Positions 31,557 through 55,296 of a DNA stretch of 64,000 nucleotides are shown piece after piece. The notes beneath the pieces are model-generated. The model saw nothing but the letters and a program-made list of their open reading frames with translations. It did not search any database and had not been told where the DNA came from. Position 1 is the stretch's first letter. Each line of letters starts with the position of its first letter. This stretch comes from Bdellovibrionales bacterium (lineage in GTDB: Bacteria > Bdellovibrionota > Bdellovibrionia > Bdellovibrionales > CAYMLA01), in assembly GCA_965217115.1 (NCBI GenBank), contig OZ244239.1:320001-384000 (forward strand), given 5' to 3'. Both the position numbers and the translations under genes were made by a program.

Positions 31557-32470
31557 CTGGAACTCTATCGTAAAGCTCAGACATTCGTTTGGCAGCGCCG
31601 CTCGCTGAAGCGAGCATCGCACCAAGCCGAACTCGCTTTACGATAGAGTTCCAGCTAAAGGCTTTTGCTTGAAAGCTTCTGGTACTGAGAACAACGGGGC
31701 GCTTTGGGCAAGGAACCGCCTTTAGATGGAACTCTATCGTAGAGCTCAGACATTCGTTTGGGCAGCGCCGCTCGCTGAAGCGAGCATCGCGCCAAGCCGA
31801 ACTCGCTATACGATAGAGTTCCATCTAAAGGCTTTTGCTTGAAAGCTTCTGGGACTGGGAACAACGGGGGGCTTTGGCAAGGAACCGCCTTTAGGTGGAA
31901 CTTTATCGTATAGCTCAGACATCGTTTGGGCAGCGGCGCTCGCTGAAGCGAGCATCGCGCCAAGCCGAACTCGCTATACGATAGAGTTCCATCTAAAGGC
32001 TTTTGCTTGAAAGCTTCTGGGACTGGGAACAACGGGGGGCTTTGGCAAGGAACCGCCTTTAGGTGGAACTTTATCGTATAGCTCAGACATCGTTTGGCAG
32101 CGGCGCTCGCTGAAGCGAGCATCGCGCCAAGCCGAACTCGCTTTACGATAGAGTTCCATCTAAAGGCTTTTGCTTGAAAGCTTCTGGGACTGGGAACAAC
32201 GGGGCGCTTTGGCAAGGAACCGCCTCTAGATAGGACTCTATCGTATAGCTCAGACATTCGTTTGGGCAGCGGCGCTCGCTGAAGCGAGCATCGCGCCAAG
32301 CCGAACTCGCTTTACGATAGAGTTCCATCTAAAGGCTTTTGCTTGAAAGCTTCTGGGACTGGGAGCAACGGGGGGCTTTGGGTAAGGGAACCGCCTTTAG
32401 GTGGAACTCTATCGTATAGCTCAGACATCGTTTGGGTAGCGGTGCTCGCTTTAGCGAGCACCGCACCAAA
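31528..32470 (+). repeat. Tandem array of ~167-170-bp palindromic units (5 full plus 1 truncated)
   Basis: Leader GCTTTGG recurs at 31531, 31701, 31871, 32039, 32206 and 32375. Each full unit is leader + 28-bp arm + ~58-nt core with GCTCGC-TGAA-GCGAGC hairpin + complementary 28-bp arm + tail ending GAACAACGG. Confidence 0.97.
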
Positions 32471-33479: not shown

Positions 33480-33679
33480 CATCTAAAGGCTTTTGCTTGA
33501 AAACTTAGGGGGCGCTTTGGCCAATGGAACCGCCTTTAGCTGGAACTCTATCGTATAGCTCAGACATTCGTTTGGCAGCGCCGCTCGCTTCAGCGAGCAG
33601 CGCACCAAGCCGAACTCGCTTTACGATAAAGTCCCATCTAAAGGCTTTTACTTGAAAGCTTAGGGACTGTGAACAACGG
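33480..33679 (+). repeat. Right-arm remnant plus one further full copy of the ~170-bp unit
   Basis: CATCTAAAGGCTTTTGCTTGAAA at 33480-33502, then a complete leader-arm-core-arm-tail at 33511-33679. Confidence 0.93.
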
Positions 33680-33724
33680 AGTTTAGGGGGGAAACAACGG
33701 AGCTCAACGGGAACAACGGGGCGG

Positions 33725-33889
33725 CGTTGTTCACAGTTAAGTGCACTTTTAGATAAGAGTGGTCCAAAGGGGGTTTGTCTTCAAATGAGTTCGGATTGGT
33801 GCGATGCTCGTGAAGCGAGCGGCGCTGCCAAACGCATGTTTGAATTTGAAGATAAACCCCCTTTGGACCACGGCTTACCTACCCAAAGC
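33725..33889 (-). repeat. Inverted copy of the ~170-bp unit carrying different 28-bp arms
   Basis: The minus strand has a recognisable leader, core and tail. Arms at 33759-33786 and 33844-33871 are complementary (27/28) but unrelated to the array arms. Confidence 0.9.
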
Positions 33890-35840: not shown

Positions 35841-38207
35841 ATGGTAAGACGACAAAACAAGACAACGGCATCACACTGTAAGAATTTGCATTGTAAGAGT
35901 TTGCACTGTAAAAAATTACACTGTAAAAATTCACCCTGCGGGAAATCACTGTCCCCCACTCACAGGCTTTGTCTCCTGTTGGGGTTTCTTGTTCTCCCAT
36001 TCTTTCTCTCCACTCACGATTCCCATGCTCAACGGGGGAAAAATCGTTTTAACAGTCTCTCAAGCAACTCTGCATCCAGTTCCAAAACAGGGAAGGGCAT
36101 TGTTGCTCAACCTCTAAGCCCAGAGGCTAAGAAGAAATTTGCTAAAGCTCAACCAGAAGACATCACCTCGAAAAATTTTCCACAAACCATTGAAAGTTTC
36201 GATTATCAGAACGCTGAAATCACAGATTTAATCAAGGCCATGGGAGAGCTCACTGGGAAGAATTTTATTATTGATGGCAAGGTTCGCGGCAAAGTCACCA
36301 TCATTGCGCCCTCAAAAATAACTGTGGCAGAAGCCTATAAAGCCTTTCTCTCAGCACTGGCTATTAACGGCTTCACCGTTGTTCCCAGTGGACCTTTCTT
36401 GAAAGTTCGTCAATCAAGAGCCGACGCCAACCGCGACAGTATTGAAACTTACTCAGGAGATTATTTCCCTAACTCAGACCAACTTATCACCTACATCATG
36501 CAGCTTAAACATATCTCTGCCGCACAGGTTAGAAAAGATATTCGTATCCTCAACTCCAAAGATGGAGAGATCTCGGCCTACGAACCGACCAATTCATTAA
36601 TCATCACTGACTACGGTTCAAACGTGGAACGAGCTGTAAAGATACTCTCTCGCCTCGACACGCCTGGGTTTCAAGATCAAATGGAAGTCATGCCCGTCAA
36701 ACACGCCAAAGCCAAAGACATCGCCGAGCTCATTGATCAGATTGTTTCTAAAGGGACTGGGAAGAAATCTCGCTCCTCTCGCAGAGGTTCTTTCTCCTCT
36801 TCACGCCTTCGAAATAACCAGGCTAAATCAGTGAACCAACCTCGGTTTAACGTCATCCCCGATGGCCGAACCAACTCTCTTATTGTTGTTGGCAACAATT
36901 CAGGAATCGGCCGCATTCGCAAGCTTGTTAAAAAATTAGACTTCCGCCTAAATCCAGAGGATGCTGGTGGAGTTTATGTCTACTACGTCAAACATGGCTT
37001 GGCCGTAGAAATTGAAAAAACCCTACAAGGTATCACCAAAGACACCAAGAAAAAGAAAACAAGTTCTCTGCTCAGGGCGAGATCATTTTCTCCTCCCAGC
37101 CCAACAGAGCAAATATTTGGTGGAGATGTTAGAATTAAAGCCGACAAACAAACCAACAGTCTTTTAGTCACATCGAGCAAACAAGACTACCAGGCTGTTC
37201 TCAATCTTTTACAAAAAATTGATATCCCAAAGGATCAAGTCTTTGTGGAAGCCATCATTATGGAAATGAGTCTCGATAACAGCAGATCATGGGGAACAGG
37301 GTTTTATAAATTCAACAAAGAAGGGACAGGGAAAGTTGGTTTCAACACCATTAAAGACTTTGTCAGTCTTCTTAGCCCTACTAGTAATACCCAAGGAGCT
37401 GTTCTCGGATTTGGTTCAGGGGATATCATCGAAGTTGCTGGGACGTCCATTAGCTCTACTATTGGTTTAGTTAATTTCTTAAAATCTAATGCAAACACCA
37501 ACGTTTTATCTACGCCACAAATAATGACACGGGATAACGAAGAAGGTGTGATAGAAGTGGGAGACAAGGTTCCCATCGCAAGTGAAACCACTACCGCAAA
37601 CAACGGAAGCACAACTAACAGTGTTAAGTTTGAAGATGCCACTATTAAGCTCAAAATAAAACCTTTTATTAGCCCCAATAGGACGAAGGTGCGCTTAGAG
37701 GTGGACCAGAGAGTTCAACAACTCTCCAATCGTCAACCACCTGCGGGAGTCACGACTGTGTTTCTTCAAGCAATTTCCAAACGATCTATAAAAACACAAA
37801 TTGAAGTGAACAACAAAGACACGGCAGTTCTGGGTGGTTTGATGAGTGACAGGATCACCGAAAGCGTCTCTAAAGTTCCCGTATTGGGGGATATCCCCAT
37901 TCTCGGATGGCTTTTCAAATCGAATGTAAAAACAACAACAAAAGTTAATCTCTTGGTTTTTATAACTCCTACTATTATTCAAAATTCAGATGATAATTCA
38001 AAACTCCTAGGTGATAAACTCAATCAACGCATTGATTTTGTTAAATCCACCGGTGGCAAAGACTCTTTTGGAAAATACATTGACCGCCTTCCTCGACAAG
38101 CGACTCTTAATGACAATGACTCTGATGGGGAAGATGACGACGAGAATGACTCTGATAAGGAAGATAACGACGAGAATGATAGCGAAGAAGTGATTGAGGA
38201 TGAATAA
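35841..38207 (+). CDS. gspD: Type II secretion secretin
   Basis: N0 domain (LTGKNFII...GKVTII), N-domain repeats, and secretin core (QVFVEAIIME, AVLGGL, KVPVLGDIPILGWLF). Confidence 0.96.
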   Translation: MVRRQNKTTASHCKNLHCKSLHCKKLHCKNSPCGKSLSPTHRLCLLLGFLVLPFFLSTHDSHAQRGKNRFNSLSSNSASSSKTGKGIVAQPLSPEAKKKFAKAQPEDITSKNFPQTIESFDYQNAEITDLIKAMGELTGKNFIIDGKVRGKVTIIAPSKITVAEAYKAFLSALAINGFTVVPSGPFLKVRQSRADANRDSIETYSGDYFPNSDQLITYIMQLKHISAAQVRKDIRILNSKDGEISAYEPTNSLIITDYGSNVERAVKILSRLDTPGFQDQMEVMPVKHAKAKDIAELIDQIVSKGTGKKSRSSRRGSFSSSRLRNNQAKSVNQPRFNVIPDGRTNSLIVVGNNSGIGRIRKLVKKLDFRLNPEDAGGVYVYYVKHGLAVEIEKTLQGITKDTKKKKTSSLLRARSFSPPSPTEQIFGGDVRIKADKQTNSLLVTSSKQDYQAVLNLLQKIDIPKDQVFVEAIIMEMSLDNSRSWGTGFYKFNKEGTGKVGFNTIKDFVSLLSPTSNTQGAVLGFGSGDIIEVAGTSISSTIGLVNFLKSNANTNVLSTPQIMTRDNEEGVIEVGDKVPIASETTTANNGSTTNSVKFEDATIKLKIKPFISPNRTKVRLEVDQRVQQLSNRQPPAGVTTVFLQAISKRSIKTQIEVNNKDTAVLGGLMSDRITESVSKVPVLGDIPILGWLFKSNVKTTTKVNLLVFITPTIIQNSDDNSKLLGDKLNQRIDFVKSTGGKDSFGKYIDRLPRQATLNDNDSDGEDDDENDSDKEDNDENDSEEVIEDE
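35874..35933 (+). repeat. Four 15-bp tandem repeats encoding HCKxL
   Basis: CACTGTAAGAATTTG / CATTGTAAGAGTTTG / CACTGTAAAAAATTA / CACTGTAAAAATTCA. Confidence 0.85.
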
Positions 38208-38239
38208 CACGGCGGGTGCAATAGGGAGCTTATTGTAGT

Positions 38240-39934
38240 ATGACCAATACAAATATTGATCTTCTTTTATATAAAAACACCAAAATGTCTGAAGACCAGG
38301 TGAGGAGCCTTCTGGATTCACCCGTCATTGGGACGACAGATAGTATTGGACAGAAGCTCAGTCAAAAAAAATACGGCACCGTGGATGAAATCATCATTGA
38401 TCTTTGTAAAGAGTTGGGCGTGGATTTTATTAAAGATATTCCTGTTAATGATATTCCTGTGGATCTCATTCGTCATATCCCTATCAACTATGCAAAAACC
38501 CATGAGATCATGCCCATTCGTGAAGAGAGCAACCAGCTGCTCGTCTTAACCAGCAATCCCATCAACACCCGATCCATGGATGATCTTCGGGTTATCTTTG
38601 GAAAAAAAGTCGTTCCCGTCATTAGCACCAGTGAGCGTGTGCAAGATGCCATTAACCGTGTTTATGAGAAAAGCACCGCCGCGCTTGAGGGATTAGACAC
38701 GATCGAAGGGGAAGACTACGATCTCGACGATCCCATTGTTGATCTTCTCGATGCGGCCGATGACGATGCTCCTGTTATCAAATTGGTAAATACACTTTTA
38801 TTCCGTGGCGTTAAAGAAAAATGCTCTGATATTCACATCGAGCCCTACGAAAAAGATATCTCCGTGCGTTTCCGCATTGACGGACTCCTCTACGAAATTT
38901 TTAAGCCGCCTAAGAGACTTCAAAATGCCATAACCTCGCGTATCAAGGTGATGGGCAATCTCAACATCGCTGAAAAACGTCTTCCCCAAGATGGCCGTAT
39001 TCCATTAAAGGTCGGAGGTAAAGACATTGATATTCGTTTGAACACCATCCCCACTTCCCATGGTGAAAGAATTGTTATGCGTCTACAGGACAGATCCAAC
39101 GTCATTCTTGAACTTGACCAATTAGGATTTTCCAAAAGATCCCTCACGATCCTTGAAGACAATCTCTTAACTAAAACTTACGGTATCATCCTTGTTACGG
39201 GACCGACAGGAAGTGGTAAATCCACCACTCTCTACGCTTGTTTACAAAAAATCAATGCTCCCAATCGTAACATTATCACCATCGAAAATCCTGTCGAACA
39301 AAACATACATGGTATCGGACAAATTCAAACTAATTCCAAAATTGGACTGACTTTTGCCTCAGGATTGCGAGCCATCTTACGTCAAGATCCCGATATTGTT
39401 ATGATAGGGGAAATTCGTGATTTAGAAACCGCTGAAATTTCTATCAACGCATCTTTAACGGGTCATCTCGTTCTCTCAACCATTCACACCAACGATGCCT
39501 CTGGGGTGTTTCCCCGTTTGATTGATATGGGTTGTGAACCATTCTTGATAGCCACTTCTATTATGGGAGTTTTAGCACAGAGATTAATCCGAGTTCTCTG
39601 CCCCCACTGTAAAGTTCCCTATGAACCCACAGATATTGAACTCGCCAGTATTGACATGACACGTCAGCAAGCCAAAAAAGGCAATCCTTGCAAACCTATG
39701 GGTTGTCACGAATGCAATCAAAAAGGTTACATCGGACGAACCAACGTTCAAGAATTACTCGTTGTCACCGATGAAGTTCGCTCTATGATAATGCAACGAG
39801 TGGACTCTGGACAAATTAAAGCCAAGGCGATCGAGCAAGGCATGCTCACTGTTCGCGACCACGGTGTTGAGAAGGTCCTCAATGGCGTGACATCTATTGA
39901 AGAAATACTCAGTAGCACACAGGTAGATAATTAA
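38240..39934 (+). CDS. gspE: Type II secretion ATPase
   Basis: SDIHIEP, EKRLPQDGR, Walker A GPTGSGKST, LRQDPDIVMIGEIRD and the Cys4 motif. Confidence 0.97.
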   Translation: MTNTNIDLLLYKNTKMSEDQVRSLLDSPVIGTTDSIGQKLSQKKYGTVDEIIIDLCKELGVDFIKDIPVNDIPVDLIRHIPINYAKTHEIMPIREESNQLLVLTSNPINTRSMDDLRVIFGKKVVPVISTSERVQDAINRVYEKSTAALEGLDTIEGEDYDLDDPIVDLLDAADDDAPVIKLVNTLLFRGVKEKCSDIHIEPYEKDISVRFRIDGLLYEIFKPPKRLQNAITSRIKVMGNLNIAEKRLPQDGRIPLKVGGKDIDIRLNTIPTSHGERIVMRLQDRSNVILELDQLGFSKRSLTILEDNLLTKTYGIILVTGPTGSGKSTTLYACLQKINAPNRNIITIENPVEQNIHGIGQIQTNSKIGLTFASGLRAILRQDPDIVMIGEIRDLETAEISINASLTGHLVLSTIHTNDASGVFPRLIDMGCEPFLIATSIMGVLAQRLIRVLCPHCKVPYEPTDIELASIDMTRQQAKKGNPCKPMGCHECNQKGYIGRTNVQELLVVTDEVRSMIMQRVDSGQIKAKAIEQGMLTVRDHGVEKVLNGVTSIEEILSSTQVDN

Positions 39935-41154
39935 TGCCTATCTTTGAGTACAAAGGCCTCAACAAAAAAGGGGCTCATGTTCGCGGTTCCATTGACGCTG
40001 AAAATTCACGAGCCGCACGTAGCAAATTAAAAGCTAAAGATATTTATGTCACTCAACTCAAAGACAAAAAGAAAGATCAAAATAAAAAGGATAAAACCCA
40101 TAAAACTCATAGCCAAAAAGTCTCCGTAGAAGATCTCTCAATGATGACTCGCCAACTAGCCACTCTGATAAGGGCAAATATTCCGCTGGTAGATTCTCTA
40201 ACAGCCGTCTCCGAACAAGTTGAAGAACCTGTTCTAAAAGAAGCTATTTCTGATATAAAAAACATGATCAATGAAGGTACGAGCTTCCATAAAGCTCTGG
40301 GCAAGTACCCTAAAATTTTTAATACAATTTACATCTCCATGTGTGAAGCTGGTGAAATGTCAGGAACCCTTGATTCCATACTCATTCGTTTAGCAGAATT
40401 CACTGAAGCCCAAGCTGCTTTAAAAAGTAAAATTAAATCTGCCATGCTCTATCCCGCTATTATGATGTTCGTAACAATGGGGCTTCTCGGTTTTCTCTTT
40501 GTTTATCTCATTCCAAAAATGGTTGTCGTTTTTGAATCTGCTCCAGAGTTAGTCTTGCCTTGGTATACAAAAATGATCATCGACACCAGTGATTTTATGG
40601 TCGCTTACTGGTATGTTTTACTTATCAGTCTCGTTGGAGTCTATTTTATATTTAACAATTGGAAAAAAACACCCAGTGGACGCGTTCAATGGGATCAAAT
40701 CTCGCTGACACTACCTGTGTTCGGAGCACTCACGCGCATAGTTGCAGTCAGTCGTTTCACTAGAACTTTATCCACACTCCTCGAAGGTGGTGTCGATATG
40801 TTAACCTCGATGAATATTGTGCGTAATGTGGTCAACAATGAAATCATTGCCAAGGCCATAGATGAGGCTCGCGATAATATCAGCGAAGGGGAATCCGTCG
40901 CTGGACCTTTAAAAAAATCAGGACAATTCCCTCCCCTTGTTATACACATGATTAATATCGGTGAAAAAACAGGAGAGCTAGAAAACATGCTCCTACAAAT
41001 CAGTGATGCCTATGACTTTCAAGTGAAAAACAAAGTTGACGGTATCACCAGTATTCTTGAGCCCGTTATGATTGTCATCATGGGTGGAGTGGTTGGCATT
41101 ATTGTTCTCGCGATTATGGTGCCTATGTTTGAAATGACCAATCTTGCTGGGTAG
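39934..41154 (+). CDS. gspF: Type II secretion inner-membrane platform protein
   Basis: TRQLATL, AGEMSGTL, AMLYP and GEKTGEL...LEP motifs. Confidence 0.96.
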   Translation: MPIFEYKGLNKKGAHVRGSIDAENSRAARSKLKAKDIYVTQLKDKKKDQNKKDKTHKTHSQKVSVEDLSMMTRQLATLIRANIPLVDSLTAVSEQVEEPVLKEAISDIKNMINEGTSFHKALGKYPKIFNTIYISMCEAGEMSGTLDSILIRLAEFTEAQAALKSKIKSAMLYPAIMMFVTMGLLGFLFVYLIPKMVVVFESAPELVLPWYTKMIIDTSDFMVAYWYVLLISLVGVYFIFNNWKKTPSGRVQWDQISLTLPVFGALTRIVAVSRFTRTLSTLLEGGVDMLTSMNIVRNVVNNEIIAKAIDEARDNISEGESVAGPLKKSGQFPPLVIHMINIGEKTGELENMLLQISDAYDFQVKNKVDGITSILEPVMIVIMGGVVGIIVLAIMVPMFEMTNLAG

Positions 41155-41334
41155 TGACAAGAAAACCAGTGAGCCAAGACGAATGTATGGTTTTGCCTAC
41201 GATAAATCAAGCACCACCAATGTGACTCAAAAAATTCTTTCCCATACTGGAATATATTGCCAAAAGCAGGCATGATATGTTGAATTATTCTAATTACAAA
41301 CTATAATGAGCTTTGTCTTTTAAACTTATTTCAC

Positions 41335-41859
41335 ATGGATGCCTCGATAATGGATAAGAACGCAATGAATAAGAACACGAAGAGTAAAACCGATCATGAA
41401 TATGCCAGCAATGATCCCTCCCCTTTTCTAAAAAACACGGAAGTGCTTAGTAACCAAAGAGGGATGACTCTTATAGAGATTATGATTGTTATTGCAATTA
41501 TTGGTGGTCTTGCGGCCATGCTCCTTCCTCGGCTCGTTGGCTCTCAAGAGAAGGCCAAAGCCAAACAAGCTAAAATACAGGTGGCACAAATTATCAGCTC
41601 CTTAGAGCTGTATTACAGCGATTGTGGTGTTTATCCCAGCCAAGACTCTGGCCTCAACGCCCTTGTCGAAGCTCCACCTGAAGATGAGTGTGATAACTGG
41701 GGGCCATCTCCCTATATGAAAAAAGAGCCCAAAGACCCCTGGAAAAGGGACTTTGTCTATGAAATTGATGACGGGGAGCCCGTCGTTATTTCCCTCGGCA
41801 AAGATGGCCAAGATGGGGGATCTGCCTATGATAAAGACATCTCTTCTGAGGATTTTTAA
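41335..41859 (+). CDS. gspG: Major pseudopilin (start uncertain)
   Basis: QRG|MTLIEIMIV prepilin motif; YP...GL.AL, W..PY, DPW and SLG.DG..GG motifs. Confidence 0.93.
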   Translation: MDASIMDKNAMNKNTKSKTDHEYASNDPSPFLKNTEVLSNQRGMTLIEIMIVIAIIGGLAAMLLPRLVGSQEKAKAKQAKIQVAQIISSLELYYSDCGVYPSQDSGLNALVEAPPEDECDNWGPSPYMKKEPKDPWKRDFVYEIDDGEPVVISLGKDGQDGGSAYDKDISSEDF

Positions 41860-41949
41860 AGAGACCTCTCTAGAAATCCACTTTTGGCTACAAACATCAA
41901 AGCCCATGGCCTTTGCAACAGACTCAATTTAACGATACAATGATGCAGT

Positions 41950-42558
41950 ATGCAGCTGCGTAGATTAAAAAATCAGTATGGTTTTACTCTCATAGAAATC
42001 ATGATTGTTCTAGCCATCATCGCTGGTGTTATCACTGTTGCAGCTCCCCGTCTTTTTAAAAACAAAATCAAAGCACGGCCTGCTGTAAGAAAAATGGAGC
42101 TTCTCTCCAAACAACTGCATCAAATATCCCGAGTGCAAAATAAAGTTTTTCGATGGGTCATCCAAATTGGTGGTGCCGAAAAACTCTCAAGTTATTGGGT
42201 GGAGTCAGCTCCTGCCAACACACTGTTTCTCACAAATAAAGATGCTGAAGACCTTACCCCTGAACAATTTAAAGAATACCAACAGCAATTCAAAATGGAC
42301 ACTTCTTTTTTTAAAAAGAAGATAACGCTGCCTGAAGGCCTTTTCTTTTTCGAGATAGAATCTACCTACCGCAGAGATTCTGTCACAGAGGGCAGAGGGT
42401 ATATTCACTACTTTCCCAACGGCTTATCCGAAGAGTCAGCTCTTCATATCAAAAACCAAGAGAAGCTCAATTGGACCATTGCCATTCACCCTCTAACAGG
42501 CCATGCTCATCTTATCAGAAAATATATTTCCCTCGAAGATTTAGCTAACAGAGACTAA
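41950..42558 (+). CDS. gspH: Minor pseudopilin, GspH position
   Basis: G|FTLIE prepilin motif, F.PNG; gene order. Confidence 0.75.
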   Translation: MQLRRLKNQYGFTLIEIMIVLAIIAGVITVAAPRLFKNKIKARPAVRKMELLSKQLHQISRVQNKVFRWVIQIGGAEKLSSYWVESAPANTLFLTNKDAEDLTPEQFKEYQQQFKMDTSFFKKKITLPEGLFFFEIESTYRRDSVTEGRGYIHYFPNGLSEESALHIKNQEKLNWTIAIHPLTGHAHLIRKYISLEDLANRD

Positions 42559-42560
42559 TT

Positions 42561-43124
42561 ATGAAACTAATAACACCCTTGCGTAAAGAATCTAATTCCA
42601 CTCATAGGTCTGTTAACGGTTTTACCTTAATTGAAACGCTCATTGCTATGGCGATTCTCACCGGGGGCATTATCTTAATGGCCAATAGCTGGGGAGGGAA
42701 TCTCCTGCGTATGCGAAAATCAAAAATAGTTTTCGAAATATCCACCCTTATCGAAAGAAAAATGGTGGATATAGATAATCAATATCGCGACAATGTCTCT
42801 AGTATACCAGAGAGTGATGAAGGTGACTTTGAAACTGACGATAAAAACTTAAAAAAATATCGTTGGAAACTCGAATCTAAACAAATGGTCGTTCCTAACC
42901 TCTCAGACCTTCTTGGCACAGAAGAAAATGATCAGATCTCAGTTGCCATGGTGAAAACTCTCACTAAAACTCTCGAAAAATCCATAAAAGAAGTAAAGCT
43001 CACCATCATTGGTGATTTTGGTAAACGTGAACTCAAACAATCCATTGTGACTTACTTTGTTGATTTTGATCAGAGGTTAGAAGTTCAAGGTCTCCCCTCA
43101 TTTAGCGGAGCACCAACAAAATGA
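42561..43124 (+). CDS. gspI: Minor pseudopilin, GspI position
   Basis: G|FTLIETLIAMAIL, EGDF...YRW; gene order. Confidence 0.75.
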   Translation: MKLITPLRKESNSTHRSVNGFTLIETLIAMAILTGGIILMANSWGGNLLRMRKSKIVFEISTLIERKMVDIDNQYRDNVSSIPESDEGDFETDDKNLKKYRWKLESKQMVVPNLSDLLGTEENDQISVAMVKTLTKTLEKSIKEVKLTIIGDFGKRELKQSIVTYFVDFDQRLEVQGLPSFSGAPTK

Positions 43125-43972
43125 ATCTTCGCTATTTGAACTCTCGCGGCATGACTCTGATTGAACTTATGATTTCCATTGCAATTCTAAGTACACTCAC
43201 TATTATGACGACCCAAAGCATTCGCCAAGGACTTAAAGCAAAAAAAAAGGTGCAAACCAATATTGATAGTTTTTCCATCGTGCGAGATACGCTTAATATT
43301 CTGCGGCAAGATATTGAAAAATCTTTCCACTACCGTGACCTCAATATCATTCTTAATTCTCAAATCGATCTTGAGACAAAGCCCCAACCAGGAGATAAGT
43401 CCAAGCCAGGAGACGAACCCAAACCGGGGGACAAGCCCAAGCCGGGGGACAAACCCAAACCAGTGGTCAAAGCCAAACCTAAACCTAAACCATTACCTGA
43501 AGATAAGGCTGCCACACATTTTATTGGTTATGAAGACAAGCTTCATTTCGTCACTCTTAATCATAAAAAAATTTACTCTGACACTCCCGAAGCCAACTAT
43601 GTTGAAGTCGGTTATTATCTAAATCGTTGTCGCAATCAAAGCAAAAAAGGAAAAACCAGTCAGTGTCTGTGGAGACGAACAAATTCCTTGGTGGATGACG
43701 ATGTAGAAAAAGGAGGTCGGTCTATTGTCCTCCTTGAATATATCAGCGAATTTGGCTTAAGGTACCTTGGCAAAGGCAAACAAGACTGGGTCAGTACCTG
43801 GCATTCAGATAATAGAGGAGATGCGGCAACAAAAGATCACTTCCCAGATGCTGTGGAAATTTCACTGACAATCAAGAGTAGTGGCGATGACAAAGCCAAA
43901 AAATACTCCTTTCAAATAGTGGTTCCTATTCGTTTCCCTAATAATCAAAGAGACGAAGATAAAGGAGGATGA
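43121..43972 (+). CDS. gspJ: Minor pseudopilin GspJ
   Basis: G|MTLIE, L.QDI, V.Y.L, LWRR and W...W...P.AVEI motifs; contains a PKPGDK repeat insert at 43382-43462. Confidence 0.8.
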   Translation: MNLRYLNSRGMTLIELMISIAILSTLTIMTTQSIRQGLKAKKKVQTNIDSFSIVRDTLNILRQDIEKSFHYRDLNIILNSQIDLETKPQPGDKSKPGDEPKPGDKPKPGDKPKPVVKAKPKPKPLPEDKAATHFIGYEDKLHFVTLNHKKIYSDTPEANYVEVGYYLNRCRNQSKKGKTSQCLWRRTNSLVDDDVEKGGRSIVLLEYISEFGLRYLGKGKQDWVSTWHSDNRGDAATKDHFPDAVEISLTIKSSGDDKAKKYSFQIVVPIRFPNNQRDEDKGG

Positions 43973-43976
43973 ATTT

Positions 43977-45200
43977 ATGTTAAGGGAGATAAAGACACTC
44001 ATCGCAAAACCACTCAGAAATGAACGGGGCATGGCTCTCATCATAGCCCTGGCTGCTGTGTCTCTTATCTTCTATTTAGTCACTGAAACAACCTATGAAA
44101 CTGTCATAGAATACAAACTCTCGTCTTCTATGGTTAATGATTTAAAAGCCCACTACGCCGCACGGGCGGGAATTGAGATGAGTCTACTGCGCCTCCAAAT
44201 TTACAAGAAAGCTGTCCATCAATTTGGTAAAACTCTAGGACCCAACAGCTCAGTCCTCAATCAGATTTGGCAAATGCCATTTGTCTGGCCTCCAGTCATA
44301 CCTAATGAGGCGCAACGTATTGACCGCGAAGCAATCAAAGAAATCGTTAAAGAATCTCTAATGAAATCAAGTTACATAACCACAATCACTGATGGGGGGT
44401 CCAAAATAGATTTAAGTGACCTCGATTCACCTTCCAAAACTTTAAAACAGAGCATCCATAGACAGTTGCTTAATGTCTTGTATAACAAAATTGATAATGA
44501 CCCTGATTGGTCCGATAACAACAGTTTTGACCCTGAACAAATCGTAGACAATATCCAAGATTGGGTGGATAAAGATGAACAAACCACCGATGGCGGCAGT
44601 GAGTCCTCTCTTTACACAGATTACAAAGAGGGGCAGTGGCCTCCTAATCGAACATTTCGCACCATCGAAGAGCTACGCCTCGTCTCTGGGGTCACAGAGA
44701 ATATCTACCAGCTTCTCGCACCACAAGTGACCATCTATGGGTTCAAAGGCATTAACGTCAATTTAGTAGCAAAAGAAGTTTTCCAATCATTTAGCTCCGA
44801 AATCACCGATGAATTAGCCGAACAAATCGTCGAGTACCGTGATGATCCACAACTCCATGGGCCCTTTAAGAGCGAAAAGGACTTTCTCCAGTTCATGTCC
44901 GAGCAAATAGGTGTCACCCTCAACCAGAAGGATGACAGCAAGATACCCATCGTTGTTGATGCTGTGCATAATTTTATCATTAAAAGCACGGCTTCTTTTG
45001 CTAATTCCACTAAAGAGATCACGGCTGTAACCTACAATATGAGTAAAGTCCGAAAACGCTTACAGCACTTTGTAGACAAGGAGAAAACTCCCACTGCAGC
45101 TGATGGGGCCTCCGCCCGAAAGACTGGAAAAGGCACTTCAGATAAGAGAGGACTTCCCCCAAAAGGTCGTCCAAGAGTTGTCTTTTGGCTTGAAAAGTAG
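43977..45200 (+). CDS. gspK: Minor pseudopilin GspK
   Basis: RG|MALIIAL (no Glu5), DWVDKD, EELRLVSG and INVN motifs. Confidence 0.88.
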   Translation: MLREIKTLIAKPLRNERGMALIIALAAVSLIFYLVTETTYETVIEYKLSSSMVNDLKAHYAARAGIEMSLLRLQIYKKAVHQFGKTLGPNSSVLNQIWQMPFVWPPVIPNEAQRIDREAIKEIVKESLMKSSYITTITDGGSKIDLSDLDSPSKTLKQSIHRQLLNVLYNKIDNDPDWSDNNSFDPEQIVDNIQDWVDKDEQTTDGGSESSLYTDYKEGQWPPNRTFRTIEELRLVSGVTENIYQLLAPQVTIYGFKGINVNLVAKEVFQSFSSEITDELAEQIVEYRDDPQLHGPFKSEKDFLQFMSEQIGVTLNQKDDSKIPIVVDAVHNFIIKSTASFANSTKEITAVTYNMSKVRKRLQHFVDKEKTPTAADGASARKTGKGTSDKRGLPPKGRPRVVFWLEK

Positions 45201-45212
45201 AACAATATCTCT

Positions 45213-46889
45213 ATGAAGTCAGTCGGTATAGACATCGGAAGTTCTAGCATCAAAGTCGCCGAAATAACCCCCACCTCCAAAGGGGTTACTATCGATCAGC
45301 TCTTTGAGTATCCCCTCAATCCAGATCCAAATCACGATTCCGAATTAGATATCTTAGAATTTCTGCGTGATCTGACACGGAAGTACGACTCTTCTAAAGT
45401 TTATTTTATTTTAGGCATCAAACAGAGGCTTATTAGTGGACGGCGTAAAACCTTTCCTTTCAAAGAAAAACAAAAAATTCTACGCAGCCTTCCCTTTGAA
45501 CTTGAAGAAGATATTCCCTTCTCTCAAGACGATAGTATCTTTGATGCTAAAATCATACAAACCCAGGGAACTTCTACAGAAGTTTATGCCTGCTCTTGCT
45601 CTAAGGAAGTGATAGAGCAATCTCTCAACTTCTGCCAAGACATTAACATCATTCCCCATATTCTTAGTGCCGATGGCTTGTCTTTGGGGAATCTTGTCGA
45701 AAATTGGCAGAGCCCCCCTGTCACTAATACGGCTTTCTCCGATGATCTCGCCGATAAATCAATCAACGACTCGGTTAAAACACTCGATGCTATTTTAAAC
45801 ATCGGACATCAACGTTCTCTCATTGTTTTTTACGATAACATCACGCAAGCCCCCGTAGGCGCTAAGTCTATTTTATGGGGAGGGCATAATATTATTGAGG
45901 CGATTGCAAAAGTCTATGAACTCCCCTATGTGGAAGCGAGTAACGAAACAAAACTACAATCTTTTCTGCTGTTGACCGACGAAGGCGCCACCTCAGATCA
46001 AATCGCTTTTTCTAAAACCATAGGCAAAGTCATCGATGATCTTGGACGTTCCCTGCGCCTCGTCTTCATGGATATTCAAAGTGAATTTCGATCCAAAGTA
46101 AAAGAACTACATTTTACAGGTGGATCGAGCCAAATTCGCAATTTCGGCCCCTATCTTACACAACAATTAGAAGTCCCTTGTAACAGATTCCAGTATTTAT
46201 CCAAATTCGCCAGATTGAGTAAAAATATAAATGTCTCTCCTGAGAGTGAAGCAAAATACTCGTTGGCTCTCTCTCTAGCTATTGAAGGCTTAAAAACCCC
46301 TCGCAATCCAGCCGTTAATTTTTTAAAAGGAGAATTTGCCCAACAGAGCCAAGCCTTTAGGGTATTTTGGAAAAAGTGGCGTCCGACCATTACTCTTGCA
46401 GCATCTATCACAGGTATTTTCTTTGTGTACTCAACACTTCGACATGTCTCGACTGAATCTTTAGATCGAAGAACTGAAACACTCATGAAAGAACAAGCCA
46501 AATCTGTGGCTAAACTCTCACGACGAAAGGCATCCATAACTAACATACGTAAATTTATTGATAATAAAAAATCCATAGCCAAAAAAAGACTGCACATCCT
46601 CTCTCTTGTTCAATTGCCTTCTGCACTCGATGTCTTTAAAAAAATCAATGATGCTCTACCCAGTAAGAAACTAACACGGCTGAGTGTCACGCATCTCAAA
46701 ATTAAAGATAATAATATCGCCATTCAAGGGTTAGCACGCCGTCAAGACATTCCACATATTAAACAAGCGTTGAAGAGAATTTCTTCTAATCAGAAGATAA
46801 AAGTATTTAACTCTTTTGAAAAACCAGCTTCAGGCAAAGCTGTCTTCGCTTTTAAATTCAAGTACAACAGGAAAAAAAATAAGCTATGA
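45213..46889 (+). CDS. gspL: GspL/PilM-like actin-fold protein with TM and periplasmic domain
   Basis: VGIDIGSSSIK, PFELE..IPF, TGG, NFLKGEF, then a TM helix. Confidence 0.8.
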   Translation: MKSVGIDIGSSSIKVAEITPTSKGVTIDQLFEYPLNPDPNHDSELDILEFLRDLTRKYDSSKVYFILGIKQRLISGRRKTFPFKEKQKILRSLPFELEEDIPFSQDDSIFDAKIIQTQGTSTEVYACSCSKEVIEQSLNFCQDINIIPHILSADGLSLGNLVENWQSPPVTNTAFSDDLADKSINDSVKTLDAILNIGHQRSLIVFYDNITQAPVGAKSILWGGHNIIEAIAKVYELPYVEASNETKLQSFLLLTDEGATSDQIAFSKTIGKVIDDLGRSLRLVFMDIQSEFRSKVKELHFTGGSSQIRNFGPYLTQQLEVPCNRFQYLSKFARLSKNINVSPESEAKYSLALSLAIEGLKTPRNPAVNFLKGEFAQQSQAFRVFWKKWRPTITLAASITGIFFVYSTLRHVSTESLDRRTETLMKEQAKSVAKLSRRKASITNIRKFIDNKKSIAKKRLHILSLVQLPSALDVFKKINDALPSKKLTRLSVTHLKIKDNNIAIQGLARRQDIPHIKQALKRISSNQKIKVFNSFEKPASGKAVFAFKFKYNRKKNKL

Positions 46890-50246: not shown

Positions 50247-50708
50247 AATTTAACCTCTTGTTTTATAGTTTTAAAAAGCTTCTACTCTCAATATATGATA
50301 ATTCAATTTTTAGGCCATAGTATCTACCTGTATTCAGGTACTTACGAGCCATTAAACTCCACGGCAAGGGCCTTTAGACGGTAATTGTCCTTCACTGTCA
50401 AAAAGAATGACTCTTTATTAGTTCTTTCCCTTTTTTGTGGGAGGGCTAAATCACAGGCATCTCCTGCTTATGGAAGGTTGAGTTCAGACGACATGTTACT
50501 ACGTACTTTTTTGCAAACTTCCCATTTACGCTTTTCACGAAAAAATATGACTTCCACCTGCCAACCCATCATCTTTAAATGCTTTGTCCGAAGTTGATAT
50601 TGATCGTGATAATTTCCTAACTCGTTATCAAAGACAATTTTAAAGATTCTTTATGACAAACATATGACAAAAAAAAATAGTGGAGCCAGTTTTTTTCTGA
50701 TGAGCTGG

Positions 50709-50858
50709 TTTTTTTCTAGAGTTCTCCCAAAAGAATCCAGCCCTTTTCTTGCTCAAACATTCGTTTGTCACCTTCCATTGCAGGGAAATGCAATGGAAGT
50801 CGCCAAGCCAAACTCGCCGAAAAGAACTGGACTCTTTTGGGAGAACCCTAGAAAAAAA
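50709..50858 (+). repeat. Diverged member of the ~170-bp palindromic element family
   Basis: GCTCAAACATTCGTTTG...CCAAGCCAAACTCGC junction motifs enclose a different inner hairpin, inside a different ~40-bp outer stem. Confidence 0.8.
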
Positions 50859-51031
50859 GGCCCTATTCAATCAATGGGTCAATGGACCTCTTTCTATGAC
50901 TGGCCTCCATGTATAACAACGCTGTTATCCATGGATAGTTTTAGAAAGAGAGCCCTCAAGATGGGTCTCTTGGGAATAGTTCCACTATTTATCACAAAGA
51001 ATCACTTTAAAAGACGAGCTTTCTCGAACCC

Positions 51032-51060
51032 AAAAAAAAAGGCGACTCAATCGTCGCCTT
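51032..51060 (-). terminator. Rho-independent terminator for the 51112-51531 gene
   Basis: Minus strand AAGGCGAC-GATTGA-GTCGCC followed by T9. Confidence 0.8.
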
Positions 51061-51111
51061 CTCACCATCCCCTAGCTTTGTCGGCTGAGGGCTAATCATT
51101 TATCTAGTGTT

Positions 51112-53680: not shown

Positions 53681-53880
53681 CGATACAAATTGCCAGTCTC
53701 CCACCTTTTTGACCACTACATCTTTAAGTCTTTTAAAAAAATGGCGCGTTAAGTTATCTCCCCTCTTCACTTTGTCTTGAGGCTTTTACGTTGACTTATT
53801 TGGGCCAGGCTGCGATTCATTATAAACTTTAGTTTGTGGGAGTCTATGTGGGCTCTATATCTTTTAAAAAGGAGTTATTT

Positions 53881-54309
53881 ATGTCTGGAGTGAACAAAGT
53901 CATTATTGTAGGACGCTTAGGTGTTGATCCTGAAGTTAAGACTGTTACAAGTGGGCAAACCGTTACCCGTCTAAGTGTCGCTACAAGCGAAAACTGGACA
54001 GACAAAGAAGGCAATCGCCAGGAACGCACTGAGTGGCATCGTATTGTCGTTTGGGGAAAACTCGCTGATATTTGTGGCAAGTATCTCGCCAAGGGAAGAG
54101 AAGTCTATGCCGAGGGTCGTTTGCAAACACGTTCTTGGGAGGACCAGCAAGGACAAAAGCGTTACACAACAGAGATCGTTGCCAATACGATTCAGTTTAT
54201 CGGTGGTAAATCCGATTACCGTGAAGATTCTAATACTCAAAGTACAAATGACGTTGGTGATTTTGGCCCCGAACCAACTTTTAATACCACTGAAGAAATT
54301 CCATTCTAG
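53881..54309 (+). CDS. ssb: Single-stranded DNA-binding protein
   Basis: [30 protein letters not shown] and acidic IPF tail; AAGGAG RBS before ATG 53881. Confidence 0.98.
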
Positions 54310-54355
54310 GTTTTACGATTCAACTTATATCATAAAATGTTTTCATTTAATTGCG

Positions 54356-54382
54356 ACGACCACTCACTGTTTGAGTGGTCGT
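54356..54382. terminator. Hairpin between convergent genes; likely terminator
   Basis: ACGACCACTCA-CTGTT-TGAGTGGTCGT, an 11-bp perfect stem. Confidence 0.65.
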
Positions 54383-54411
54383 GGTGATTGATGACATTAC
54401 TTTCAATATGT

Positions 54412-55296
54412 CTAGTGACTCGCCTCGTGGGACACTTCATCGGCTTGTAGATTCTCGCCATGTCGATAACGGTCGACCAGAGATTTATCCTTCGTGGGAA
54501 ATGAGAAGAGAAGGGCATGCATATTCGACTCCTCATCTTCTTGAGTCACAACAATATAATGAAGATCCTCAACCCCCTCATCTGGGTGTTCCTTAATAAA
54601 AGACACTAAAATATTACCACTTAAATCTGTGTTACGCCAAATCTCATCCGCCGCTTCTATGGTCTGATGACGGAGGGATGAAAATTGACGGTAATCTTCA
54701 TCAGGGATATCACTCTCACTACGCAGAGTGAGCATTGCTTTAAAAAGACCGACAGATAGAAAATCACCCTCTCCCAAAGCATCCCCTTCAAGGGAGGCAA
54801 ATTCAATTTGTTCAAAATCTTGATCAAATATCAATTCACCGGCACAGTATGTATCTAAAAATTCAATGTCTTTTGTTGGGAAATGCAAATAGACAAAAGT
54901 TGGAAGGTCATTGGTCAAATAAGCCGTCACGACATAAGAAAATTTCTTTCCATTAACTTCACACTTAGAGACAAAATGATTTAAAATTTCCCCTTCAACA
55001 GTGAAAGTATCTTCCCATACCTCATCAGGATAATCTAAAGTCGCATTCAAGTATTTCTCATACTTTTCATGATCTTCAACAGAGATATCTGTATCAGAGC
55101 GTAGGGAAAAGAACTTCTTCTCCAGTACGTCAACAACGGGTCTAAAGTATTCAAGTAAGTCTTCCTCTGTAGAGAAGATCAACCCTTTGCCTTCATCAAT
55201 CACAATGGTCTCTGCGTCTAGATCAACCACAGAATTGCTAGCCTTCTTTTTTGCTTTCATCTTTAACTGTGGAGGTTTCTTTTTAGGGGGCGACAT
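54412..55296 (-). CDS. Acidic hypothetical protein with an internal domain duplication (PBECR-like motif)
   Basis: Two copies of LRS..DI..ED...T(L/I)...DE(V/I)W...Y(V/I)V...FPTKD. Confidence 0.7.
   Translation of the reverse strand: MSPPKKKPPQLKMKAKKKASNSVVDLDAETIVIDEGKGLIFSTEEDLLEYFRPVVDVLEKKFFSLRSDTDISVEDHEKYEKYLNATLDYPDEVWEDTFTVEGEILNHFVSKCEVNGKKFSYVVTAYLTNDLPTFVYLHFPTKDIEFLDTYCAGELIFDQDFEQIEFASLEGDALGEGDFLSVGLFKAMLTLRSESDIPDEDYRQFSSLRHQTIEAADEIWRNTDLSGNILVSFIKEHPDEGVEDLHYIVVTQEDEESNMHALLFSFPTKDKSLVDRYRHGENLQADEVSHEASH

Follow-up and report, generated by a model that had tools for sequence, protein, structure and literature searches.

The window analysed here is a stretch of 64,000 nucleotides, positions 320001–384000 of the single 2.17-Mb contig of a Bdellovibrionales bacterium genome. 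At positions 50709–50858 it holds a long hairpin that shares two short motifs with a tandem array of hairpins in the same window, raising the question of what this hairpin belongs to, how it came to be there and what its conserved part might be for. An earlier note on this DNA regarded it as a third, distant member of the array's family, in which only an asymmetric internal loop between two helices is kept. A motif search of the window located GCTCAAACATTCGTTTG at 50751–50767 and CCAAGCCAAACTCGC at 50803–50817; the two motifs have 6 and 7 matches in the window, against 0.40 and 0.20 expected, numbers reached in none of 100 shuffles. They are enclosed by an outer stem of ~40 bp, in which 50710–50750 pairs with 50818–50857, with plus-strand A-C oppositions at 50720/50847, 50735/50832 and 50741-2/50825-6, and with a TT/C loop adjoining the core. 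Every feature described earlier is in place, far beyond chance: both motifs, an inner hairpin, a stem of ~40 bp and four A-C mismatches. The parts of the hairpin, given by the strand that folds, are the following.

50710–50750, minus strand: outer stem, 3' arm of the folded strand (from the fold and the comparison of copies)
50751–50767, minus strand: first half of the conserved loop, on the bulged strand, minus-strand sequence TGTTTGAGC, with GA at 50753–50754 and a 4-nt bulge at 50755–50758
50772–50799, minus strand: inner hairpin with an 11-bp stem and a 6-nt loop (from the fold), of the TTGC...GCAA subtype also found in other Bdellovibrionales
50803–50817, minus strand: second half of the conserved loop, minus-strand sequence GCGAGTTTGG, with GA at 50814–50815
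50818–50857, minus strand: outer stem, 5' arm of the folded strand (from the fold and the comparison of copies)

The fold z-score of the hairpin is -10.5 on the plus and -12.6 on the minus strand, and the minus strand folds better both as RNA (-88.5 vs -69.3 kcal/mol) and as DNA (-50.8 vs -43.0). In this copy the lowest-energy fold of the minus strand is multibranched and does not show the internal loop; the loop is assigned from the alignment of copies and the folds of the class-B relatives introduced below. At gathering score, the whole window has no match in Rfam. A 143-aa open reading frame across the element (50664–51095) had no Pfam match and was taken as spurious. An intrinsic terminator was considered and rejected: on both strands the long stem runs into a stretch of A, and a scan found no convincing terminator in it (3 sites vs 1.1 expected over the region). 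Elsewhere in the window, a Type II secretion cluster (secretin, ATPase, F, pseudopilins, K) occupies 35841–46889, ssb adjoins a gene with a PBECR2 nuclease-like domain at 53836–55296, and the 51 bp at 50420–50470 have an exact duplicate at genome positions 1010588–1010638.

Genome-wide, the motif pair occurs 102 times, compared with 0, 0 and 0 occurrences in three order-4 Markov shuffles, and a covariance model returned 104 hits. The occurrences form two classes. Class A comprises 40 near-identical, dispersed copies, the window copy included, with a median pairwise core identity of 0.957, and class B comprises 62 copies with locus-specific stems of ~26 bp, clustered around low-GC genes. Enclosing stems were present around 37 of the 40 class-A and 60 of the 62 class-B pairs; the pair thus lies far above its chance rate and mostly within stems, as the earlier note had anticipated. 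The description of the window copy as a distant third member holds only with respect to the array, since the copy has 39 near-identical siblings in the same genome. Three further divergent members, at genome positions 412745, 417012 and 1026552, carry C for G in the loop and an altered short stem, and were missed by the motif search. Class B is represented in the window by two groups.

31575–32310, minus strand: tandem array of five class-B hairpins with the same loop, at a 168-bp period, outside the mobile element that carries the window copy
33558–33845: divergent class-B doublet, with cores at 33558–33619 (folding on the minus strand) and 33785–33845 (folding on the plus strand)

Among class-B neighbours less than 2 kb apart, 32 are tandem, 5 divergent and 1 convergent, and a short repeat word is found on the 5' side at 1.65 vs 0.21 per 170 nt; both the divergent doublets and the 5' short repeats were seen for class B. 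In genome G306, all seven hand-chosen opposite-strand pairs are divergent.

When the flanks of class-A copies were compared, sharp shared ends with inverted repeats of ~25 bp became apparent, placing the window copy within a 359-bp miniature inverted-repeat element (MITE) at 50645–51003. The earlier note had overlooked that the hairpin moves as part of this ISL3-type MITE, whose remaining parts are listed here.

50637–50644, plus strand: left 8-bp target-site duplication ATTTTAAA, 7/8 identical to the right copy
50645–50686, plus strand: left terminal inverted repeat (TIR) with a short internal tandem duplication, its first 12 bases equal to the left end of the ISL3 element in locus L123
50859–50978, plus strand: internal body, a deletion derivative of the ~290-bp body of the longest copies, with no transposase remnant detected
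50979–51003, plus strand: right TIR, the family's 24-bp right end being the part compared with the ISL3 element in locus L091
51004–51011, plus strand: right 8-bp target-site duplication ACTTTAAA

With a strict end pattern, 29 elements of 212–522 bp could be paired, 28 of them with a complete hairpin (hairpin copies lacking the strict end were left unscored); BLAST grouped the copies into 41. Among the 29 TIR-bounded copies an 8-bp target duplication was exact in 12 and present with at most one mismatch in 15, against 0.49 and 0.79 for shuffled pairings, and the other lengths between 2 and 12 bp were unenriched. The 24-bp right end of the longest MITE copy is identical at 23 of 24 positions to that of an autonomous ISL3 element in the metagenome locus L091, which encodes a complete ISL3 transposase (NF033550, E 2.4e-79), and the left end of the MITE matches a related ISL3 element in L123 at 12 of 12 bases. 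L091 was one of two loci found by scanning metagenomes with the MITE end pattern; the other, L092, has no adjoining transposase and was discarded as an ISL3 source. In unassembled contigs from four runs of one sample, depth over the element was tens of times that of the flanks, with loose ends at 50645 and 51001. Oriented by their ISL3-type ends, 31 of 40 class-A copies lie against the replication fork, with the origin taken from GC skew, or 27 of 36 loci in a hand count that merges four tandem pairs. For ISL3 itself an against-fork bias is reported in the part of PMC3971601 available to us, and the available part of PMC11448079 describes ISL3-mobilised MITEs with 8-nt repeats. Judged from these ends and duplications, class A is an ordinary ISL3-type MITE.

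Neither PF01610 nor the L091 protein detected an ISL3 transposase in the host genome (99.4% complete). ISL3 genes are present in 179 of 384 genomes of the order, making a past supply of transposase plausible. The element thus has ISL3 ends, duplicates 8 bp of target and is present in 40 hairpin-bearing copies, and we propose that an ISL3 transposase no longer found in the genome spread it in trans. A C-terminal ISL3 remnant in the MITE body, suggested by eye, was not supported, as ISL3 proteins had no match to the body at a useful E value in tblastn. Several copies carry features of their own. Those near 195700, 828930, 1589400, 1674050 and 2119700 have a common flank of ~40–70 bp beyond one TIR, which is either a preferred target repeat or a longer version of the element, and in the copy at 505317–505833 a 373-aa open frame is predicted to start within the body and leaves through the right end into the flank. 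In the window, a second dispersed repeat at 51005–51110, consisting of a terminator-like hairpin and a further stem, abuts the right target duplication of the MITE and has 12 other BLAST matches in the host genome at 70–89% identity.

The hairpin itself is probably a passenger, captured by this MITE from an older hairpin repeat family. Its motif is absent from 42 ISL3 loci (30 and 11 of the order, and L091), the closest subgroup included, so that no parent ISL3 element carrying it was found among the ISL3 loci examined. Conversely, loci L001–L075 yielded no ISL3 protein matches, and among 64 proteins neighbouring the relatives' hairpins there was no transposase, integrase or reverse transcriptase of a mobile-element family; these 64, out of 71 listed, exclude two short frames and the neighbours of three loci matched by chance, and comprise diverse housekeeping genes and genes of unknown function. 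The class-A inner hairpin is nearer to the TTGC...GCAA subtype of other genomes than to the class B of its own host, which suggests that the hairpin arrived from elsewhere. The whole hairpin is kept in 36 of the 41 BLAST groups, and the rest of the body is often deleted, in several ways. Such retention could mean more than a mere passenger: the hairpin might be a working part of the ISL3 derivative, for instance by slowing transcription or translation at the left end or by helping the ends to synapse, with the MITE as a source of the family. Its location ~20 bp inside the left TIR, intact where the right-hand body is variously deleted, would suit such a role. We nevertheless consider this improbable, given that the hairpin is missing from all 42 ISL3 loci, that members in other genomes have neither TIRs nor ISL3 neighbours, and that the MITE has no real match elsewhere in the order (383 genomes; best E 1e-4, over stretches of 21–65 bp).

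The hairpin core was found in 20 of 384 genomes of the order by exact pattern and in 32 of 151 by covariance model. A scan of a genome collection returned 40 stretches, 37 of them from records labelled Bdellovibrionota; the other three had no enclosing stems and were dropped before all counts. The same form of the motif, which we call open, had no match in viral contigs. By this distribution, the core belongs to a repeat family that spans the order and has no other link to ISL3. Throughout at least six families of the order the core is nearly fixed, while the stems cannot be aligned. We found no published description of the loop in the literature searched, subscription papers and bioRxiv supplements being outside our reach, and the family is apparently undescribed but REP-like.

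In an alignment of 52 copies, the minus strand runs from the outer stem through GA opposite GA, a G·T and a T-A pair into a short stem that leads to the inner hairpin; four nucleotides bulge from one of the two sides, in a conserved register. The loop is thus predicted to combine a tandem G·A/A·G with this adjoining bulge. In the 23 best of 26 model hits, GA is kept on the non-bulged strand in 21 and on the bulged strand in 22, and across the members that the model found, the core comes down to about CGAGTT and TGTYYGAG. Some of these members were already known from the pattern, and the 52-copy profile bears the imprint of the pattern used to search. Each of the 16 outer pairs tested has changed on both sides, with an outer-stem covariation of 0.401 vs 0.166 for shuffled pairings (reached in 0 of 500) and 0.277 for the best slid control, controls that ignore relatedness. 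This bears out the earlier proposal that the internal loop is the conserved core and that the outer helix varies freely. The inner helix, also called freely varying, turned out to keep an apical YGC...GCR and to fall into two subtypes.

That the minus strand is the one that folds is likewise upheld: the G·T at the loop is present in 52 of 52 copies, and at another pair T-A occurs 72, T·G 10, C-G 9 and C·A 0 times in 91. The four A-C mismatches of the stem had been read as G-U/G-T pairs on the minus strand; they are present in the window copy, yet only two are fixed (37 of 37 copies), and the variable stem mismatches of class A are divided 19 vs 14 between the two polarities, scored over 37 copies with three broken-stem copies set aside. 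Among the class-A stem mismatches, strand information is carried only by the two fixed A-C pairs. Among copies that are ~96% identical, three stem columns show changes on both arms, which suggests copying from arm to arm. Such copying likely keeps the long stems near perfect and can produce covariation in the absence of selection, so stem covariation alone is no proof of selection. Alternatively, the hairpins might be a neutral by-product, with template switching preserving palindromes and the loop persisting by descent and homogenisation with no reader. The both-arm changes and the strand-neutral variable mismatches both fit this account. It accords poorly with a core that is nearly fixed where the stems are unalignable, with the recurrence of the loop in a different topology in distant bacteria and with the polar placement relative to gene ends, and we give it little credence. 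The loop may be a site for protein binding or cleavage, as the earlier note proposed; no partner protein was found.

The polarity of placement is evident in relatives: a gene or tRNA converges on the 3' side of the folded strand in 45 of 60 cases in Bdellovibrionales and in 19 of 21 copies of the permuted form described below, counts that are inflated because kin and tandem copies are not independent. Class B of the host has no such bias in numbers (20 of 38), and 18 of its 20 facing genes end 30–56 nt from the core. For class A, facing genes were found in 24 of 36 cases (p 0.065). Class B has no lagging-template bias (38 vs 24). At the class-B copies 534090, 882747, 1356072 and 1657371, four of the 18 close cases, the TGA stop of the facing gene lies inside the conserved end of the element, which may supply the stop codon there.

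The loop module reaches wider than the window sequence alone could show. With the two halves of the motif in permuted order, 64 matches were obtained in 14 of 121 Gammaproteobacteria, against 9 for a reversed control; 33 of the 64 come from one genome and some singletons within genes are chance matches. The permuted pattern was also found in at least 125 stretches of viral contigs. In this form the core is capped directly: of the 74 three-base caps in a set of 132 distinct hits, 58 read GNA with a C:G closing pair, each of the four bases occurring at N, and nine further caps are a five-base C-GNA-G. Beneath the caps lies a variable complementary stem, with a mean duplex energy of -13.8 vs -8.5 for swapped arms (n=18) and of -8.4 vs -4.6 in viral stretches (n=43). 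A T-rich 3' hairpin accompanies 31 of 66 permuted loci. At gathering score Rfam found only a tRNA on 20 permuted loci; at relaxed E, 14 loci gave a single sub-threshold TwoAYGGAY hit along with a tRNA and three other weak matches. The open and permuted forms are probably homologous, to judge by a 16-base match and their shared placement. In one viral contig the permuted motif occurs four times at ~3114-bp spacing (L214–L217), and at L175, L177 and L238 the motif has no lower stem and abuts the stop codon of the facing gene, as would the end of an element in its own right.

The permuted form also bears on whether the loop acts as DNA or as RNA. A Y-GA-R context favours sheared tandem G·A pairs in DNA, and both strands of the loop usually read Y-GA-R. 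The d(GNA) triloop with a C:G closing pair is very stable in DNA according to the part of PMC3201870 available to us, so the GNA caps favour folded single-stranded DNA over RNA, an argument that applies to the permuted form only, as GNA is not a consistent feature of inner loops in the open form. The main rival is an RNA reading, in which the loop would be a non-standard kink-turn in minus-strand RNA, made either as the 3' trailer of an island gene or by antisense read-through, with a host protein bound to it. GA in tandem on both strands beside a bulge (21 and 22 of the 23 top model hits), wobble pairs confined to the minus strand and a 5'-side gene that points toward the class-B element in 22 of 28 host cases all agree with it. 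Against these stand the bulge of 4 nt where 3 nt is defining and a 3b:3n pair that is mostly Watson-Crick (79 of 91), which according to the available part of PMC8191799 predicts poor folding in ions. In addition, no L7Ae-family gene (PF01248) was found in the host genome, the gene tight against the element in relatives transcribes the opposite strand, the permuted form has GNA triloop caps and Rfam has no match in the window. Taken together, we judge a kink-turn RNA unlikely, although less so than a neutral by-product or a working part of the MITE.

The reading that we favour, with a reasonable if limited degree of assurance, is that the hairpin, inside a 359-bp ISL3-ended MITE, is likely a passenger drawn from an older REP-like family whose loop likely works on folded single-stranded DNA. 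The minus-strand core would form two sheared G·A pairs beside the 4-nt bulge, between variable helices. Since its two halves are also met in permuted order beneath a GNA cap, the core may be a modular docking site. As with REP, a trans-acting single-strand nuclease or transposase would drop the hairpins just behind gene ends. Searches for Y1, reverse transcriptase, GIY-YIG, ISL3 and L7Ae proteins revealed no mobilising or binding protein for the hairpin. No Y1 transposase was detected in the host genome, and across ten repeat-bearing genomes a credible loop motif lies near 2 of 41 Y1 loci and flanks none of the 41. The one GIY-YIG domain of the host genome, in a 655-aa frame, lies away from the hairpin clusters. 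As for an integron attC cassette array, none of the three tyrosine recombinases of the host genome is beside a cluster, and attC core ends (RYYYAAC/GTTRRRY) were not seen by eye. A 315-aa reverse transcriptase with an upstream 104-aa helix-turn-helix-like frame is encoded at genome positions 1868366–1869599, with no hairpin element nearby; this island follows rpsL-rpsG, sits beside restriction-modification-like genes and is retron-like by appearance.

More tentatively, the tandem-G·A/bulge loop could be a cross-phylum single-stranded DNA module, open in Bdellovibrionales and closed by a GNA cap in Gammaproteobacteria and phages, read by one protein family that spreads gene-less hairpins to gene ends; this would be a REP-like class independent of RAYT and related to TwoAYGGAY, of which the ISL3 MITE would be a natural transplant. 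If the same module does mark repeats in distant phyla and in two topologies, its 20 bases provide a bait for the protein that spreads or reads such repeats, a question that a September 2026 preprint leaves unanswered, in its available text, for extended TwoAYGGAY. As the 40 recent MITE copies demonstrate, covariation can arise in long stems even between mobile copies that are nearly identical, which calls for caution before covariation in the stems of repeats is read as proof of a functional RNA.

Compared with known systems, the MITE resembles that of Microcystis aeruginosa PCC 7806 (187 bp; PMC11448079, available part), which likewise has ISL3-type ends, an 8-bp duplication and no transposase, and which is present in 30–40 mostly intergenic copies with a stem-loop fold. 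Unlike that element, as far as the same part of the source describes it, the MITE reported here measures about 210–520 bp with nested deletions and ends of ~25 bp, its cognate transposase was not found in the genome, and it carries the hairpin of an unrelated repeat family. Like the standard k-turn, as given in the available part of PMC8191799, the loop sets tandem G·A/A·G pairs beside a bulge on one strand, with a helix at either end; it differs in its 4-nt bulge closed by U·G, its Watson-Crick 3b:3n and the lack of an L7Ae-family protein in the genome.

The extended TwoAYGGAY elements (RF01731; bioRxiv 10.64898/2026.09.22.753630, in its available text) are, like the hairpins described here, structured, multicopy and intergenic, very unequal in number between genomes, with divergent doublets and with short degenerate repeats on the 5' side; in both, a conserved top sits on a long basal stem, and neither has a known mobiliser. 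Four TwoAYGGAY loci also carry a 3' T-rich hairpin like that of the 31 of 66 permuted loci. Unlike TwoAYGGAY, the present family is without AYGGAY loops, and none of 19 TwoAYGGAY loci contains the loop described here. The RF01731 model had no match in the host genome, and the same model matched 6 of 111 Gammaproteobacteria. The main text of the preprint contains no occurrence of "Bdellovibrio" or "k-turn"; its supplements could show the loop.

REP, REPIN and BIME elements with their RAYT proteins (Y1 HUH) are extragenic palindromes found behind stop codons and tRNAs, in doublets or arrays, and are presumably handled as single-stranded DNA. The hairpins share with REP/REPIN the extragenic location close behind the 3' ends of genes, the doublets and tandem arrays, and the strand polarity. 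They differ in that the conserved part is an internal loop rather than the ends, with no end tetranucleotide common across genomes, and in that the search turned up no Y1 gene with the element on its flanks, unlike REP/REPIN with RAYT. By test a member of neither, the hairpin family behaves most like REP/REPIN and extended TwoAYGGAY.
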